IMG/VR virus record: IMGVR_UViG_2870479586_000005
Direction: 5' to 3' (one strand)
From: a virus
Taxonomy: Duplodnaviria; Heunggongvirae; Uroviricota; Caudoviricetes
DNA length: 42,950 bases
Shown: one piece after another, positions 30,613-41,701 of the stretch
Layout of the letters: each line of letters starts with the position of its first letter
How positions within the stretch are numbered: the first letter of the stretch is position 1
Translations under genes and position numbers: made by a program
The notes under the pieces: model-generated
Databases searched by the model: none
Told to the model about the DNA's origin: nothing
Seen by the model: the letters and a program-made list of their open reading frames with translations, nothing else

Positions 30613-31401
30613 TCAAAATGCTGAATCAGCAACAGATACAGCCGACTTTTTCCCCATTACCATCAATTTATCCAGTGTCATACTTCGCAGATTGTCGCTG
30701 TGGATCACCAGATACCCTGCCCGCTCAGCGATCTCTTTGAAAGCGTCAAAGGTCATCAGATGTTCGCCTTTGGCAACATGGCGCATCCTTGTCACTTTTC
30801 CATTTTTGATAGTGGTGATAAAAGAAAAATCCGGAATGGTTGGCTGATTTTCATCGAGTAGCAGGCAGTGGATGTATTCAATCGCCTCTAACATTTGCGT
30901 CTGTGACAGTTGTTCTATGTGAGAGACGGCGAAGCGTTGATGAATCATGGTGTAGGCATCGGGATACATCATGCCTTTCTTACCGACCAGCATATTAACG
31001 GCATCACGTAAGGGAGTACGGTCATCGGTAGTTGTACTCCGCCTCTCTGGGCGCTGGCTAAAATAACAATCTTCAAGCTTTTCGAAAACTTCCCAAGCCT
31101 GTTCTGTTTCCAGCATTTTGGCATGGCGAGCTGCGCCGCGTTCTGTCCAGAGAATGAGGGATCGGGTATGTTTAGCAACTGACTGACTATCTGTCAGTCT
31201 GTTTTTGAAGTCGCGTAATTCATTACCTTCCAGCTTAAAAAAATGCTTTCCTACGACAAATCTGGCGATGTTGCGCTTGAAGTTTTGCTGGATACCATTT
31301 ACTTCCGTGCCATACAAACTGGCAAGCAATTCAGTAGTGATGACGGGAAGTTGGTTATGATGTAGCGGAGAAAGGGATTCCGCAGATATTTGGATTGTCA
31401 T
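30613..31401 (-). CDS. phage antirepressor (AntA/ORF6N-type N-terminus)
   Basis: Track ORF 30613-31449; ATG at 31401 has a GAGG Shine-Dalgarno; antirepressor-like character judged from recall. Confidence 0.6.
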   Translation of the reverse strand: MTIQISAESLSPLHHNQLPVITTELLASLYGTEVNGIQQNFKRNIARFVVGKHFFKLEGNELRDFKNRLTDSQSVAKHTRSLILWTERGAARHAKMLETEQAWEVFEKLEDCYFSQRPERRSTTTDDRTPLRDAVNMLVGKKGMMYPDAYTMIHQRFAVSHIEQLSQTQMLEAIEYIHCLLLDENQPTIPDFSFITTIKNGKVTRMRHVAKGEHLMTFDAFKEIAERAGYLVIHSDNLRSMTLDKLMVMGKKSAVSVADSAF

Positions 31402-31431
31402 CGCAGTGGCCTCACTTAGTGTTTTTTTCAT

Positions 31432-31462
31432 CACCACCAGCGACGCCAATCATCTGGTGGTG
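31432..31462. promoter_or_regulatory. perfect 9-bp inverted repeat (candidate operator of the antirepressor gene)
   Basis: CACCACCAG (31432-31440), 13-bp spacer, CTGGTGGTG (31454-31462), immediately upstream of the antirepressor start codons. Confidence 0.45.
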
Positions 31463-31673
31463 AACTGTGCAGGGTTGGCGTAACCGGCTAAGTGAACCCG
31501 GCGCTTCCGCAGAAGCCCCCACACAGCCCACCATAATGCGAATGTGGCCGTGCCTAACACATAAAAAAACCGCTAACGCGGCTATGCGTCACTTAGATAT
31601 CCGGGACGCCAATCCCGGCAACCGATTTTGCGGCTGCGCGGAAACTATAGCCCCGGGCTTTTTCTAAGTCAAT

Positions 31674-36818: not shown

Positions 36819-37232
36819 ATGAGGATGAAAAATTTGATGCTTAGCGACCGTTTATCTCAAAGACGCAAACAGCTTGGTCTAACCCAACAACAGCTTGCTG
36901 ATATGGTTGGAAGATCGAGTGTGAGCGTTTTTAAATGGGAAAGCGGACAAAATGAACCAAAGGGCCAGAACTTGTTGGCTTTGGCCAATGCACTCAAGTG
37001 TTCTGCCACATGGCTGCTTTTTGGTGACGAAGACCAGGCGCCAACTCCGGTAGACGAATTACCAACAGAGCTGGATTCACGTCAAAAAAGATTGTTAGAG
37101 TTATTTGATTCATTACCCGAGTCAGAAAAAGAAAAGCAACTAATTGAATTAGAAGATAAAGTTGAAAACTTTAATCGTTTATTTGAAGAGTTACTGGTTA
37201 CCAGAAAGAAACTAACCCCCACCAAAAAATAA
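36819..37232 (+). CDS. XRE-family HTH repressor (CI analogue lacking S24 peptidase domain)
   Basis: 137-aa ORF; HTH (LTQQQLADMVGRSSVSVFKWESG) then a coiled, acidic C-terminus; no Ser/Lys autoprotease motifs seen. Confidence 0.7.
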   Translation: MRMKNLMLSDRLSQRRKQLGLTQQQLADMVGRSSVSVFKWESGQNEPKGQNLLALANALKCSATWLLFGDEDQAPTPVDELPTELDSRQKRLLELFDSLPESEKEKQLIELEDKVENFNRLFEELLVTRKKLTPTKK

Positions 37233-37235
37233 AAT

Positions 37236-37270
37236 AAAGGCAATGTTTTCAATGCATTGCCTTTATTTTT
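37236..37270 (+). terminator. rho-independent terminator after the repressor gene
   Basis: AAAGGCAATG-9 nt loop-CATTGCCTTT followed by ATTTTT, starting 4 nt after the stop. Confidence 0.65.
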
Positions 37271-38178
37271 ACCCCAAATACTAACTTTTGTTATAAAACA
37301 TCTTGCACATAAAATTACCTTTAGTTATATTCATTCCATCAACAACGCTTACCCAGCGGCAGTTGTTCAGAAACACGTTCTGACAGCCGGAAAGACGGCA
37401 CCAAATTTTGCGCGTCGGCGCCAACACGGTGACAGAGGGAAAGACTTCACCGGCATATGGCACATGTGTCGAAGCGGTCTGGATGGAAGCGGAGCCTTAA
37501 CGCGTTGTCTCCATAGCAGGTAGCCGGAATGTGCAAGCCACAGCCAGGTATGAGCGATTGATTCACCATCAAGGCGATACGGTGTGACCACCAGGGAAGA
37601 GTCCTGGCTACAACACGAGAGCGCACTTCATCGACTCAACTTTGAGCTTTGTCGTTAAATTTTGAAATGGCGGAGTGCGCTCCCGGTTGTGGTGAACAGG
37701 TGTTTAACGGGAACTCCCTGCCCGTTACCCGGTTCGATTCCGGGCGCCCATCATCAATTTGCTGTGTTTAGTCTTTGCCCAGTCCGCACGATGGGCCATT
37801 TTTTCACACAGCCAGGTTTTATCGCTGTGCCTGAGTCCCCAACAGGAGAGGCCAAACCCGCAGCGTGACACCAGGGAAAGACCGGAGGAAGTACCACGCC
37901 TGACCAGCGTTGACCATGAGCCTGACCAGCTCAAAACAGGAAAGACCAGCCCTGTACGGTCGTAATGGAAACATAACGACGCCGGAAACGTAACCGGCAC
38001 CCTTTAGATAGCAAAAGACCCGCACAAGGCGGGCCAGTTACCCCGAACGGCGACCAAACCATTCGGATTTATCACAAGTGACCAAACTTGTGATGAGGAA
38101 AGACCAACGACACTGACGCTATGGAAGCTGATCAATATTCGCTGATCGGCTCTGAGTATACATTACCAAGGAGTCGCT

Positions 38179-38499
38179 ATGGAAGCGCGCACCATCCCAG
38201 TAACACTCTTTATTCATTATGCAACTTCAACTTTCAGCCACGAAAAGCTGCTTGTTGCGACGGTTGATATGTCAAAAAATTTTCCAGACAGGTACATCCT
38301 TCTGGAAAGCCGCGAAATTGAAATTACCGTCAACCAGCCCCAGCCAATCGACATCATCGGTTTACAGGTCGAGCAGCTGCATGAGCAAAAACAGAAAACA
38401 GCCGCCGACGCCCAACAGCGTATTGCTGCTATCGATGACGAAATCCAGCAGTTACTTTGCATCGAATACACGCCAGATACCGATGAAATCCCCTACTAA
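38179..38499 (+). CDS. hypothetical early-left protein
   Basis: 106-aa ORF with AAGGAG Shine-Dalgarno. Confidence 0.4.
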   Translation: MEARTIPVTLFIHYATSTFSHEKLLVATVDMSKNFPDRYILLESREIEITVNQPQPIDIIGLQVEQLHEQKQKTAADAQQRIAAIDDEIQQLLCIEYTPDTDEIPY

Positions 38500-38529: not shown

Positions 38530-38859
38530 ATGACCATTTTTAACGGCTTGTTAGAAGCGAAAAAAGGCGCGCTCAAAAACGGTGCGATCCCGGCGCTGGC
38601 CATCGCCATCGACGCCCCTAACAAAAAAGTTGCCGAGAACATCATCATCGGCAAATTGTGGGAAGCCTACCCTGACCACGGCGACAACTATTTCAAACCT
38701 AAAATCTGGGAGGATGCCCCAGGCCAACCGCGCCCAGGCGTCGGTGAGTTTGATGAGACGTTTGCCACAGAACACAGTTTTGATGGCGAAAAATGGGTAG
38801 TTAACCCCCCGCTGATTCAGATAGCGGTTCAGCAGATATCGCACAGGTTAACGACCTGA
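38530..38859 (+). CDS. hypothetical early-left protein
   Basis: 109-aa ORF; ATG directly follows the repeated TAATGAGGAAAGACCA initiation module. Confidence 0.45.
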   Translation: MTIFNGLLEAKKGALKNGAIPALAIAIDAPNKKVAENIIIGKLWEAYPDHGDNYFKPKIWEDAPGQPRPGVGEFDETFATEHSFDGEKWVVNPPLIQIAVQQISHRLTT

Positions 38860-40745
38860 TGAAACTGCCTGCTCGTGAACGCTTCGCCGCCGTCCTGCTG
38901 TTCAGCCACGACGCCAACGAAGTCGACAGTGAATTGCTTGCGCAGACGCGTGAATACCTGGAGATGCTCGACAACAGTGATACTAACAGTGAGGATGAGG
39001 TTGACGCGTTTAACCGCATCGTCCTCGATGCCATGGTAGCGTGTAAGCCCATTGAGTACATGCATATTGCTGGATTGAATAATCTGGTACATGCAATTTT
39101 GGCAAGTTGCGATACCCAGGAACAAAACCCGACCAGTTGGACTATCTCCAAATTTATAAAAAAATGGGTAGAGAATCCCGGTAAACGCGATGAAATGCTG
39201 CCGGAGGTAAAACCACAAACAGCATCCGCACGTCCTTACCAACAGACTCACGCCACACTGGATCGTGAAATTGCCTGCGCCCTGTTACCTGTTGCCCCGG
39301 AAAAAATCACCCCCAGCATCCTGAAAGCGGCAGACGAAATAATCAGTCAGGACAGGGAAGATTTTAAACGCTGGTCAATGGCCTTGCGCACAACGGATCA
39401 GATCCTTGCCTATGACCGCGCATCAGTATTCGGTGTTATTCAGAGCGCCCCCGCAAAAGACACGTACCACTTCCCACAATCCCTGCGCAGTCACATCGAC
39501 AACTGGCTGCAAGCTAACGGGCAGCGTGATGCAAATGCTGTTGAAGAGAAGCCAAAGGAAGCAGCACCAAAGGATGATGTAAAAGTCACCAACCACGGCG
39601 GCGGACGATTCTCAATTGATGGGATGATGTCAGAAACATCCTCAAATCAGGGCGAAAAAAGCGAAGCAGCAAATGCTGGAGAACGTAGTTTGCAGCAGTT
39701 GCGTGAGCAGTTTGTCACGCCCCGCCATGTGTATGGCGTACCAGAAAATAACGCCGTATCACAGCGGGAATCTGTAACTGTTATCCTGGAAGAAGAGACT
39801 CCTCCACAAGAAAAACTTAGCGAGCAGGTAAAGGAGCCTGTGCAGAACGTTGACGCGCTGGTTGAGCGGATCCATACCGAAGAGCACCAGCGGCAGAATG
39901 CAATCTCAGCTATCGAAACGGAGTTAAATGACTCCAGTGATACGGATAACCTGGCATTGTGGAAGAACGTATTCAAAACCGATGAGCGTTTCACCAAAGC
40001 TTTCTCTCAGAATGGCGGCGGCACATCCATCAACGGTACTTATATAGCGATGAAAGCGACTCGCGAATTTGGGCCGTTTGGTATTGGCTGGGGTGTAGAG
40101 GTGGTGGAAGAGCGTTTTGATAAAGGCGCACCGATAGTTCGCAAAAAACAGGTTGGTGAAAAAATAGAATGGGATCTGATTCAAGACGGAGTTGGCGGGT
40201 ACCTATGTGAAATGCACCACACCATGAAAGTTAGAGTCTGGTACATATTGAATGGGGTGCGCGGTGAGTCCGAGGCTTACGGATGCACACCTTATATCTA
40301 CGACACTAAATACGGACCAACAAGCGACGGCGAAGCGCCGAAGAAATCCTGGACGGATGCTGTTAAGAAAGCGCTATCCCCTCTCGGATTCAGCGCCGAT
40401 ATTTTCATGGGCCTGTACGACAATCCGGAATACCGCCAGAGGAATAAAGCTGAGTTTGATATCAAGAATGCCAGCGAAAATGCGGAAGATGCTACCCGTC
40501 TGCGTAAGGAACTGGATGAGAAGCTTATCAACGTTGCCAATACGCTGGCCGCCGCGGTAACCGCCAACGAAGTAAACAAGGTATTTGGCCTCATCGCCCG
40601 CGAAGTGGATGTACACCGAAAAGCAGCAGAAGCCAAAGGCGATAAAGAATATTCATCGTATCTGGGATCGCGCCTGCGCCGTATCACCGACATCAAAACT
40701 GAACGCCTCGCCGCCCTCACCGCTGCACAGGAGCAAACCGCATGA
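38859..40745 (+). CDS. large early protein, possible single-strand annealing recombinase (Erf/Rad52-like C-terminal region)
   Basis: 628-aa ORF; C-terminal KKSWTDAVKKALSPLGFSADIFMGLYDNPEY loosely recalls the Erf-family conserved segment; upstream of a Gp157-like gene. Confidence 0.35.
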   Translation: MKLPARERFAAVLLFSHDANEVDSELLAQTREYLEMLDNSDTNSEDEVDAFNRIVLDAMVACKPIEYMHIAGLNNLVHAILASCDTQEQNPTSWTISKFIKKWVENPGKRDEMLPEVKPQTASARPYQQTHATLDREIACALLPVAPEKITPSILKAADEIISQDREDFKRWSMALRTTDQILAYDRASVFGVIQSAPAKDTYHFPQSLRSHIDNWLQANGQRDANAVEEKPKEAAPKDDVKVTNHGGGRFSIDGMMSETSSNQGEKSEAANAGERSLQQLREQFVTPRHVYGVPENNAVSQRESVTVILEEETPPQEKLSEQVKEPVQNVDALVERIHTEEHQRQNAISAIETELNDSSDTDNLALWKNVFKTDERFTKAFSQNGGGTSINGTYIAMKATREFGPFGIGWGVEVVEERFDKGAPIVRKKQVGEKIEWDLIQDGVGGYLCEMHHTMKVRVWYILNGVRGESEAYGCTPYIYDTKYGPTSDGEAPKKSWTDAVKKALSPLGFSADIFMGLYDNPEYRQRNKAEFDIKNASENAEDATRLRKELDEKLINVANTLAAAVTANEVNKVFGLIAREVDVHRKAAEAKGDKEYSSYLGSRLRRITDIKTERLAALTAAQEQTA

Positions 40746-41311
40746 GCACAGCTATCGCTATTGCAAAAGAATATGCCAGCCTGATTGACCTGCTGGAAAC
40801 CTCCGACGAACTGACGCCAGAGATGATCGCCGACACGCTTGAAGGTATGGAAGGAGAACTGGGAGACAAACTGGACGCCATGATGGTCATCTGCCGCAAT
40901 TTACAGGGCAATGCCAATACCTGCGCTGAAGAAATGTCTCGCCTGGCTACCCGTAAGACGTCCTTTGAAGGCAAGGAAAAAGCAATCCGAAAGCATATGC
41001 TCGCCTGCCTGCAAGCTGCTGGCCTGGATAAACTGAAAACCGCAAAAAACACATTTACTGATGCACAGGGGGCTATCCGGGTAATTATCGATAGCAAAGA
41101 TAAGATCCCGGATGAGTATGAAGGCGTGTCACTTGTTGATGTAGAAACGGTTATTACACCAAACAAGCGAGCCATTAAAGAAGTGATTGAATCTGCGGAG
41201 GCGGTTGCCGCCGAAATACTGGCGCGTGGAGAAACACCACCAGCCGAGTTATTAAACCCGGTACCAGGCGCACATCTGGAACGCGGCGAACGTTCACTGA
41301 GGGTACGCTAA
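40742..41311 (+). CDS. Gp157-like protein (recombination-associated family)
   Basis: 189-aa ORF coupled to the upstream gene; family assignment from recall. Confidence 0.4.
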   Translation: MSTAIAIAKEYASLIDLLETSDELTPEMIADTLEGMEGELGDKLDAMMVICRNLQGNANTCAEEMSRLATRKTSFEGKEKAIRKHMLACLQAAGLDKLKTAKNTFTDAQGAIRVIIDSKDKIPDEYEGVSLVDVETVITPNKRAIKEVIESAEAVAAEILARGETPPAELLNPVPGAHLERGERSLRVR

Positions 41312-41471
41312 TGCTTAAACTCACATTAAAGCGTGGTGACGCGGTTCACCTGGTACTTGCCGATGGAACCAACGGCATTATTGAAGCACGGAGCCGCTGC
41401 GAACTTGGGCTACACCTGCCAGAAAACATTAAGGTCACGCGGGAGAAATCGGCATTCCCCCACCAGAACTG
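41310..41471 (+). CDS. small hypothetical protein (53 aa)
   Basis: ATG overlapping the upstream stop (TAATG); MLKLTLKRGDAVHLVLADG... ; below the ORF-track cut-off. Confidence 0.25.
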
Positions 41472-41701
41472 ATTACGCCTAATCAGAAATAAAAACTCAC
41501 CATCGCTAGCATTGCGATTCACCAGTAACCGGAGGATCACAATGCTGCGATGGCAACCGGGAGCAACTCTGCTCTCCGCATTTGATATCAAAATTGGCCG
41601 ACTGTCGGCCAGCGTCAGGAAACAGGCTGTGACCGAGTCTGATATTGCCCGTGCCTGCAAGGCGGCAGATGACGCAATAAGCTACATAATGAGGAAAGAC
41701 C

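Follow-up and report, generated by a model that had tools for sequence, protein, structure and literature searches.

Rad52/Rad22 annealases, among them human RAD52's N-terminal domain and Sak of the lactococcal phage ul36, make up the Pfam family PF04098. Other described systems share parts or gene order with the locus reported here. RecE is a component of one of them, and its N-terminal region has no known function yet enhances linear-linear recombination (PMC11611040). In phages of Firmicutes, gp157, Mu gam, DUF2483 or DUF1351 genes share the position beside erf or sak4, and analogous functions have been inferred for them (PMC8093625). Here we analyse a stretch of 42,950 nucleotides (nt) from the IMG/VR virus record IMGVR_UViG_2870479586_000005 (Caudoviricetes), which we call the window, and in it a pair of overlapping genes, one encoding a large protein and the other a protein of the Gp157 family. 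We regard it as probable that a Gifsy/lambdoid-type E. coli prophage has its recombination module here, made up of two translationally coupled genes that would specify a Rad52-type annealase, carried on a RecE-like scaffold and lacking a nuclease of its own, and the Gp157 protein with which it would act; the annealing activity is predicted from fold and motif.

The two genes correspond to open reading frames (ORFs) of 628 amino acids (aa; 38859-40745, + strand) and 189 aa (40742-41311, + strand) in the ORF list of the window, and both lie within the early-left operon, between a helix-turn-helix (HTH) repressor gene (36819-37232) and the xis/int genes (41702 onward). An initial annotation of this DNA had given the same coordinates and the same early-left position, and the ORF list and Pfam bear it out on both.

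Evidence for a divergent Rad52-type annealing domain

The initial annotation had proposed, tentatively, that the C-terminal part of the 628-aa protein is a recombinase whose core resembles that of Erf or Rad52. When the last 280 residues were modelled with AlphaFold from a 74-sequence alignment, an annealing-protein fold was indeed predicted (predicted local distance difference test score, pLDDT, 94.6). The model consists of a short helix, a hairpin, a helix, long antiparallel strands, a further helix and three long C-terminal helices, and two features of the domain can be placed on the window:

39954..40412, + strand: Rad52-type core, placed by AlphaFold, Foldseek, hhalign and weak Pfam Rad52_Rad22 matches
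40425..40739, + strand: C-terminal extension, three long helices after the Rad52 core (H175-217, H221-244 and H248-279 of the AlphaFold domain model, pLDDT >93)

In a Foldseek search of PDB, the seven best matches were all to human RAD52's N-terminal domain (expect value, E, 6e-7 to 3e-6; probability 1.0), with ~170 aligned columns and template-modelling scores (TM-scores) of 0.47-0.60 normalised to the target; the next-best PDB match had an E of 0.05, and none beyond RAD52 was lower. Comparison of the 74-sequence family profile with residues 1-212 of RAD52 (a query sequence identical to PDB 1KN0) using hhalign gave an E of 3.3e-5 and a probability of 72% over 128 columns, and paired APKKSWTDAVKKALSPLGF with ARKEAVTDGLKRALRSFGN, the RAD52 helix that holds K152/R153. 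We take this region of RAD52 (..KEAVTDGLKRAL..FG..) to be its conserved basic DNA-binding helix. Across the 74 homologues, K147, K148, D152 and G162 are invariant and K156 is nearly so, and 32 of these family members have weak matches to Pfam Rad52_Rad22 (PF04098), the best with an E of 1.9e-5.

These fold, profile and motif comparisons, together with the conserved Gp157 partner described below, support the recombinase call at the level of a predicted activity, and we conclude with high confidence from the models that the C-terminal domain is a divergent Rad52-type annealing domain. The Rad52 side of the earlier comparison therefore stands and the Erf side does not. Erf (PF04404), RecT/Red-beta (PF03837) and Sak3 (PF06378) were each rejected as the identity of the domain, none of these profiles having matched the window protein, and all three were absent from the 25 families most often matched by the 74 relatives (E <= 0.1).

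The family is large. A search with the last 280 residues against 1.84 billion representative proteins (E <= 1e-3) returned 2729 clusters at 50% identity, the majority of them standalone and 240-290 aa in length; among the best 150, about 30 were long fused forms of 670-814 aa. The three-helix extension is present in the fused forms and in many of the standalone homologues and is a candidate partner-binding region.

A conserved Gp157 partner gene

The gene that overlaps the end of the annealase gene is the following:

40742..41311, + strand: Gp157-family gene, 189 aa (PF05565, E 2.4e-28; phrog_253, E 1.8e-46)

Its match to Pfam Sipho_Gp157 (99.6 bits against a cutoff of 28.6, over profile positions 4-149 of 162) confirms the Gp157-like neighbour reported earlier. 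The annealase stop and the Gp157 start overlap as ATGA (40742-40745), a GGAG lies 8 nt upstream of the ATG and, as judged from the sequence, the Gp157 gene is translationally coupled to the annealase gene.

We scanned 160 IMG/VR loci for the partner gene using hidden Markov models (HMMs) built from our own alignments. A Gp157 gene lay immediately downstream of the fused form in all 78 assessable loci (in two more, the sequence runs out no more than 64 nt past the annealase stop) and immediately downstream of the standalone form, 242-332 aa from stop to stop and without a scaffold match, in all 79 assessable loci. Three standalone loci were read manually, and in these the stop-to-stop Gp157 frame has its start deep within the annealase gene. 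The same two genes are found together in the cultured phages ZF40, BUCT708, PMG1 and PseuP_222. Since it is present in standalone and fused loci alike, the pairing belongs to the annealase domain and not to the scaffold.

PHROGs and some depositors label Gp157 genes 'Mu Gam-like'. Nine diverse partner proteins matched the Gp157 profile with E of 1e-31 to 1e-45. The Mu Gam family (PF07352) gave no match at E <= 10 for the Gp157 protein of the window or at E <= 1 for the nine partners, and hhalign runs that compared Gp157 alignments with Mu Gam or with a Gam alignment gave probabilities of 0.2-0.5% with shallow alignments (effective number of sequences, Neff, 2.1-2.6 and 1.7); the search for Mu Gam homologues had returned only close relatives (at least 72% identity), so the Gam profile is itself shallow.

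Two further observations concern this gene and its surroundings. Six of the nine diverse partners (L058, L049, L062, L006 and others) have weak matches, all on the same central segment, to DUF7307 (cyanophage Pam3 gp33-like; E 0.018-0.66), and the two families may be remotely related. Immediately downstream, a 53-aa ORF (41311-41472, phrog_2482) is coupled to the Gp157 stop by TAATG (41309-41313). Its counterpart in E. coli relatives is a coding sequence (CDS) of 60 aa, similar small CDSs follow Gp157 in ZF40 and BUCT708, and it may be a third member of the module.

A frameshift divides the large gene in the window

The 628-aa protein had been taken as a complete gene product. The phrog_2489 profile, intact relatives and DNA alignment indicate instead that its ORF is the larger part of a frameshifted gene of 738 aa. 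Positions 1-94 of the profile (728 in all) fall on a 109-aa ORF immediately upstream (E 3.4e-51) and positions 109-728 on the 628-aa ORF; E. coli prophages that are 97-98% identical in DNA have a single CDS, of 738 aa (Z0117EC0036) or 737 aa (TUM13936); and an alignment of the 628-aa ORF with the 738-aa protein P0001 covers the whole of the ORF at 96% identity. The parts of the divided gene are as follows:

38530..38859, + strand: 109-aa ORF, the frameshifted 5' fragment (native residues 1-93, 16 out-of-frame residues and a TGA stop)
38805..38810, + strand: poly-C tract, a hot spot for indels at which the frame shifts (C6 in the window; with C7 the 738-aa frame is preserved)
38857..38861, + strand: TGATG overlap, in which the stop of the 109-aa ORF overlaps the ATG that is internal Met111 and the start of the 628-aa ORF
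38859..40745, + strand: 628-aa ORF, residues 111-738 of the intact protein

DNA alignment with an intact relative (L002) places one C fewer in the window (C6 versus C7), and C7 is found in all 11-12 RefSeq complete genomes that have the poly-C allele. Another allele, 90-95% identical over the 121-nt stretch, is carried by 429 of the 449 copies in complete E. coli genomes, and in both examined alleles of this majority type (L001 and P0001) the C run is interrupted (NTP, not NPP). In a larger collection, out-of-frame variants recur, with the C6 product (P0271, ...NPPL..) on 2 contigs, the C8 product (P0282, ...NPPR*) on 14 and the C9 product (P0281, ..NPPPLIQ..) on 36, and for this reason we consider the tract an indel hot spot. 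Each C6 contig derives from its own read set: one, from ERR9979375, is 99.94% identical to the window, the other, from SRR11484444, is 97.3% identical, and the SRR11484444 prophage has the same C6 and a 628-codon frame that is also intact, with 20 amino-acid differences in the 628-aa ORF.

Homopolymers of 6-7 bases are classic sites of indel error, and the in-frame C7 is the form present in RefSeq complete genomes; the frameshift could therefore be an error of sequencing or assembly, the true gene of the strain being the intact 738-aa form. We think this unlikely, as the identical C6 appears in these two independent read-set assemblies, the C8 and C9 contigs come from several sources, and the pattern seems to suit real length variation better than random error. 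The C6 of the window is more likely a real mutation than a homopolymer error.

The 1-nt deletion in the poly-C run would detach the YdfE_N domain, with which the intact protein begins, from the rest of the window copy. The most that could then be made is a 628-aa protein shortened at its N terminus, through restart at the TGATG overlap. A translational restart of this kind, yielding the 628-aa protein, is possible given the sequence. A reading with appreciable weight, which we nevertheless do not favour, is that the gene in the window is a decaying prophage pseudogene, its function abolished by the frameshift and its 628-aa ORF without a useful product. Consistent with decay are the deletion relative to intact relatives, the in-frame C7 of all RefSeq complete genomes with the poly-C allele, the existence of other broken copies (an IS3-family insertion in several strains and a different split in L011) and the absence of a strong Shine-Dalgarno sequence before the ATG at 38859. 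However, only the first 93 residues are detached and the 628 codons remain open and close in sequence to the intact protein, the overlap of the ATG with the upstream stop is compatible with translational restart, and the second C6 prophage, at 97.3% identity, has kept its 628-codon frame.

A poly-C tract in which C6, C7, C8 and C9 alleles are all found, with an identical C6 on two diverged backgrounds and an upstream ORF that, in the C6/C9 frame, stops exactly on the ATG of Met111, could also be a phase-variation switch that reversibly couples and uncouples the YdfE_N domain and the annealase. This seems improbable to us, since 429 of 449 complete genomes carry the other allele and the run is interrupted in L001 and P0001, and C7 is short for an efficient contingency locus.

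Among related loci, ISEc52, an IS3-family element, is inserted in the 3.4-kb annealase/Gp157 region of several E. coli strains (H12-H15, e.g. NZ_CP107114.1), and in the IMG/VR relative L011 the large gene is broken elsewhere, into 191 aa and 583 aa.

Predicted modules of the N-terminal scaffold and linker

The N-terminal ~400 aa of the 628-aa protein had been described as acidic, low-complexity sequence. The first 400 aa are mildly acidic (isoelectric point 4.96, 16% D+E, net charge -21); low complexity was not borne out, the mean entropy in 20-aa windows being 3.39 bits versus 3.32 in the C-terminal part, and AlphaFold predicts folded modules. Our model covers residues 1-472 of an intact orthologue and was built from a 22-sequence alignment (mean pLDDT 73.5). 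Its parts, in residues of the intact protein and, where they fall in the 628-aa ORF, in window coordinates, are:

Intact residues 1-92: alpha/beta module D1 (YdfE_N, PF27430), AlphaFold pLDDT ~90
38871..39203, + strand: helical module D2, intact residues ~115-225 (106-225 in the residue blocks of the model), helices H115-H223, block-mean pLDDT mostly 71-91
39231..39533, + strand: helical module D3, intact residues ~235-335, pLDDT ~90
39540..39815, + strand: predicted disordered acidic linker of ~90 aa, intact residues 338-429 (228-319 of the 628-aa ORF), pLDDT <50
39603-39626, + strand: linker motif GRFSIDGM, inside the predicted disordered linker
39822..39935, + strand: long single helix before the annealing domain, intact residues 432-469, pLDDT 78-92

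D1 is recognised by a precomputed PF27430 match on a product identical to the 109-aa ORF and on full-length relatives. E. coli K-12 YdfE is the namesake of this domain, and our literature search found no paper assigning a function to YdfE. D3 has its homologue in a part of RecE/ExoVIII outside the nuclease, at positions 260-370 of 877: the NCBIfam model PRK09709 matches P0001 at residues 231-336 (E 2e-12, 46 bits against a cutoff of 1269). D3 is also matched by phrog_607 and phrog_2082, and tblastn searches with the scaffold reach the RecE genes of Gifsy-1/2, HK225 and Klebsiella. D2 is homologous to proteins of 823 aa that are named 'ExoVIII' and carry a DEDDh exonuclease domain, with an alignment that spans intact residues 42-331.

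Of 34 long homologues, 23 carry the linker motif in the general form G-x-[FM]-[SAG]-[ILV]-[DES]-[GND]-[LMI]; a narrower form is (N-L-G-x-)G-[RK]-F-S-[IV]-[DE]-G-[LM]. Further linker mini-modules, for example GEYVEGISDPNDPKWVK, are common to the present family and the DEDDh 'ExoVIII' protein. A conserved motif within disorder is typical of docking, and we propose these linker motifs as candidate docking sites.

The exonuclease label and relatives that share the scaffold

The names given to this family would make the protein an exonuclease of the RecE/ExoVIII type: phrog_2489, phrog_7838, phrog_607 and phrog_2082 are all labelled exonuclease, RefSeq uses 'exonuclease', 'exonuclease family protein' and 'phage-associated endonuclease', and NCBIfam gives the partial ExoVIII match described above. 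That match, however, is confined to 260-370 of the 877 model positions at 46 bits, far below the cutoff of 1269, and falls in the N-terminal region of RecE, outside its nuclease domain, residues 564-866 (PMC11611040). Pfam finds no PDDEXK, DEDD or other nuclease match in the protein, whereas genuine relatives show theirs, Foldseek finds no nuclease fold in either half, and the standalone 248-aa proteins called 'exonuclease' consist of the Rad52 domain and a helical tail. A nuclease function was therefore rejected, the control relatives having been positive in the same analyses; domain analysis largely refutes the exonuclease reading, which we consider very improbable. Nor was a nuclease domain detectable in the Gp157 protein or elsewhere in the early-left operon, and none was recognised among ten early-right and neighbouring ORFs that were scanned.

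By tblastn and Pfam scans, homologous scaffolds in the same early-left position are found in three architectures:

Gifsy-1 RecE, 961 aa: Exonuc_VIII N-terminal domain and DUF3799/PDDEXK C-terminal domain, followed by RecT
PhiR42_1/mEp460-type 'ExoVIII', 823 aa: C-terminal DEDDh Rv2179c-like exonuclease (E 2.4e-67), with no adjacent RecT or Gp157 gene
Present family: C-terminal Rad52-like domain, plus a Gp157 gene

The best explanation for the 'exonuclease' names in PHROGs and RefSeq, those of standalone proteins included, is that annotation was transferred via the common scaffold. One such standalone protein is the 248-aa Rad52-like protein of Pseudomonas phage PMG1 (L006:3495-4241, PMG1_00054; phrog_7838), which both RefSeq and PHROGs name 'exonuclease'. 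In PhiR42_1 (L168:3875-6346) and its relatives mEp460, Evi, Tritos and PPompW, a gene named 'exodeoxyribonuclease VIII' has no RecE PDDEXK domain.

Locus layout and prophage context

The early-left operon runs on the + strand of the window, in this order:

36819-37232: HTH repressor gene
Next, ~930 bp without a convincing ORF
Next, 106-aa ORF (phrog_2479)
38530-38859: 109-aa ORF
38859-40745: 628-aa ORF
40742-41311: Gp157 gene
41311-41472: 53-aa ORF
End of the operon: DUF4224 excisionase gene, then an integrase gene running past the window edge

A divergent early-right operon encodes Cro, a YdaT/CII-like protein, a replication initiator and a DnaB-like helicase. Of 5426 complete E. coli genomes, 458 contain DNA that is 97-98% identical, in every case on the chromosome; in the two relatives examined for it, the integration site is beside the tRNA-Leu/Cys/Gly-pgsA-uvrC locus. 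No near-identical DNA was found in the phage collection, and the element is known only as an E. coli prophage. In a PADLOC search for known anti-phage defence proteins, neither the large protein nor Gp157 gave a match, and nor did either of the small ORFs that flank them.

Elsewhere in the window, isrK, a C4 antisense RNA and its a1/b1 target (31453-31650, - strand) each score above the Rfam gathering threshold, and an anti-repressor gene (30613-31449, - strand) lies directly downstream of them, an arrangement that is the anti-repressor control of P1/P7 and of Gifsy-type phages. The isrK and C4-type RNAs beside an anti-repressor gene mark the element as a Gifsy-like lambdoid prophage. The region between the repressor gene and the first early-left ORF (37250-38180) is also unannotated in a 98%-identical E. 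coli prophage. Within it, an RprA-like Rfam match (37696-37806, + strand) extends over the full model length at a score below threshold (37.4 bits versus a gathering score of 70, E 0.016) and terminates at a terminator-like hairpin and T-run (37782-37796).

Proposed mechanism and significance

In the mechanism that we propose, the intact product of the first gene would comprise, over 738 aa, the YdfE_N alpha/beta domain, D2, D3, the acidic linker, the long helix, a Rad52-type single-strand annealing protein (SSAP) domain and the three-helix extension. The Rad52 domain would oligomerise and bind single-stranded DNA (ssDNA) via its conserved basic helix (KK..TDA..KK) and would then anneal complementary strands, in the service of phage recombination, replication restart and mosaic exchange. 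Lacking an exonuclease of its own, the module would rely on host nucleases or replication forks for its ssDNA. Gp157 would be an obligatory, stoichiometric accessory factor with a part in DNA-end handling, nuclease modulation, loading or mediation. The scaffold and the linker motif would direct the enzyme towards DNA ends or a host protein, the same service that they would perform for RecE-like exonuclease heads.

Several points weigh against this mechanism or against parts of it. The domain of the window scores 13.6 bits (E 0.063) against a Pfam Rad52_Rad22 cutoff of 20.3, and because it falls below this curated cutoff we file it as a divergent Rad52-like clade and not as a member of PF04098. 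When PDB sequences were searched with HMMER, neither the single domain nor the 74-sequence profile gave a match below E 0.08, so RAD52 was reached only through fold comparison and hhalign; the hhalign probability is only 72%, the TM-scores are moderate, and the annealing activity of the family is itself deduced from fold and motif. The N-terminal 472 residues have no credible structural match in PDB (best E 0.7) or in BFVD, a library of predicted viral protein structures (best E 0.07), in searches that used the three modules as one model and may thereby have lost sensitivity, and for want of such a match the proposed role of the scaffold is speculative. The 'Mu Gam-like' label of Gp157 was not reproduced by Pfam or by two hhalign runs. 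Finally, the gene is disrupted in the window, and this copy may be non-functional.

A broader model, which we offer tentatively and regard as rather doubtful, is that the YdfE_N-D2-D3 scaffold is a common docking platform of the 'giant' proteins encoded early-left in lambdoid phages, with interchangeable heads (PDDEXK, DEDDh or Rad52). The Rad52 head and Gp157 would then be a self-sufficient, nuclease-free recombination system that recruits host activity via the scaffold and linker motifs, and the poly-C tract may additionally toggle the first scaffold domain. If the docking-platform model is true, the locus would allow the unexplained role of the RecE N-terminal region to be approached directly; in any case, that one N-terminal scaffold bears either a nuclease or an annealase opens a comparative route to this role.

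The gene family is a common one: of 5426 complete E. coli genomes, 449-458 (~8%) carry it, as do many Salmonella genomes, and its members are annotated as 'hypothetical' or, wrongly, as 'exonuclease'. Identification of a Rad52-type domain corrects this annotation, including that of the standalone 248-aa proteins of Pseudomonas phages, and extends the Rad52-like proteins by a large, divergent clade whose Gp157 partner is fixed and whose members are candidates for recombineering tools in Gram-negative hosts. Our literature search found no paper in which a Rad52-like annealase is joined to an N-terminal region of the RecE-like or YdfE-like type. According to one report (PMC3945230), temperate phages and prophages undergo relaxed recombination that is driven by Rad52-like recombinases. 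A previously unrecognised, predicted recombinase of this kind in ~8% of E. coli genomes therefore bears on prophage mosaicism, and the underlying biochemistry would be of a familiar type.

Comparison with known systems

One likeness is to the Rad52/Rad22 family. In the hhalign comparison the signature helix K-x-x-x-T-D-x-x-K-[KR]-A-L-x-x-x-G is conserved, and the standalone members, at 240-290 aa, are of ordinary phage-annealase size. Unlike that family, the window protein falls under the Pfam threshold and belongs to a divergent clade, and in enterobacterial prophages the domain is fused behind a scaffold and linker of ~470 aa. The three-helix C-terminal extension stands in place of the C-terminal half of RAD52. 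The gene order differs as well, the Gp157 gene always being downstream here, whereas the rad52/22 modules of Firmicutes adjoin ssb (PMC8093625).

RecE/RecT of Rac and Gifsy resembles the present system in that a large early-left gene lies just upstream of xis/int, and both are parts of recombination modules. D3 is homologous to the non-catalytic N-terminal module of RecE, as is part of D2 in the RecE of Gifsy. However, RecE has a C-terminal PDDEXK nuclease and is served by a separate annealase, RecT, whereas the C-terminal domain of the present protein is itself the predicted annealase, of the Rad52 and not the RecT type, with no nuclease and with Gp157 as partner. Because the nuclease domain that defines RecE is absent, the present protein is not RecE. 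With the 823-aa 'ExoVIII-like' proteins (of the mEp460/PhiR42_1/CP-933P type) it has nearly the whole scaffold in common, over residues 42-331 at ~25% identity, together with the linker mini-modules and the same place before xis/int. These proteins differ in ending in a DEDDh 3'-5' exonuclease and in having no adjacent Gp157 or RecT gene.

In the Firmicutes modules that combine an SSAP (Erf or Sak4) with gp157, Gam, DUF2483 or DUF1351, a Sipho_Gp157 gene likewise adjoins the annealase gene (PMC8093625). There, gp157 is upstream of erf or sak4 and ssb follows (PMC8093625), whereas here gp157 is downstream and overlaps the annealase stop, and the operon has no ssb. The locus combines a RecE-like scaffold with a Rad52-like head and a Gp157 partner and, as its predicted fold and motif suggest, would work like a Rad52/Sak-type phage annealase.

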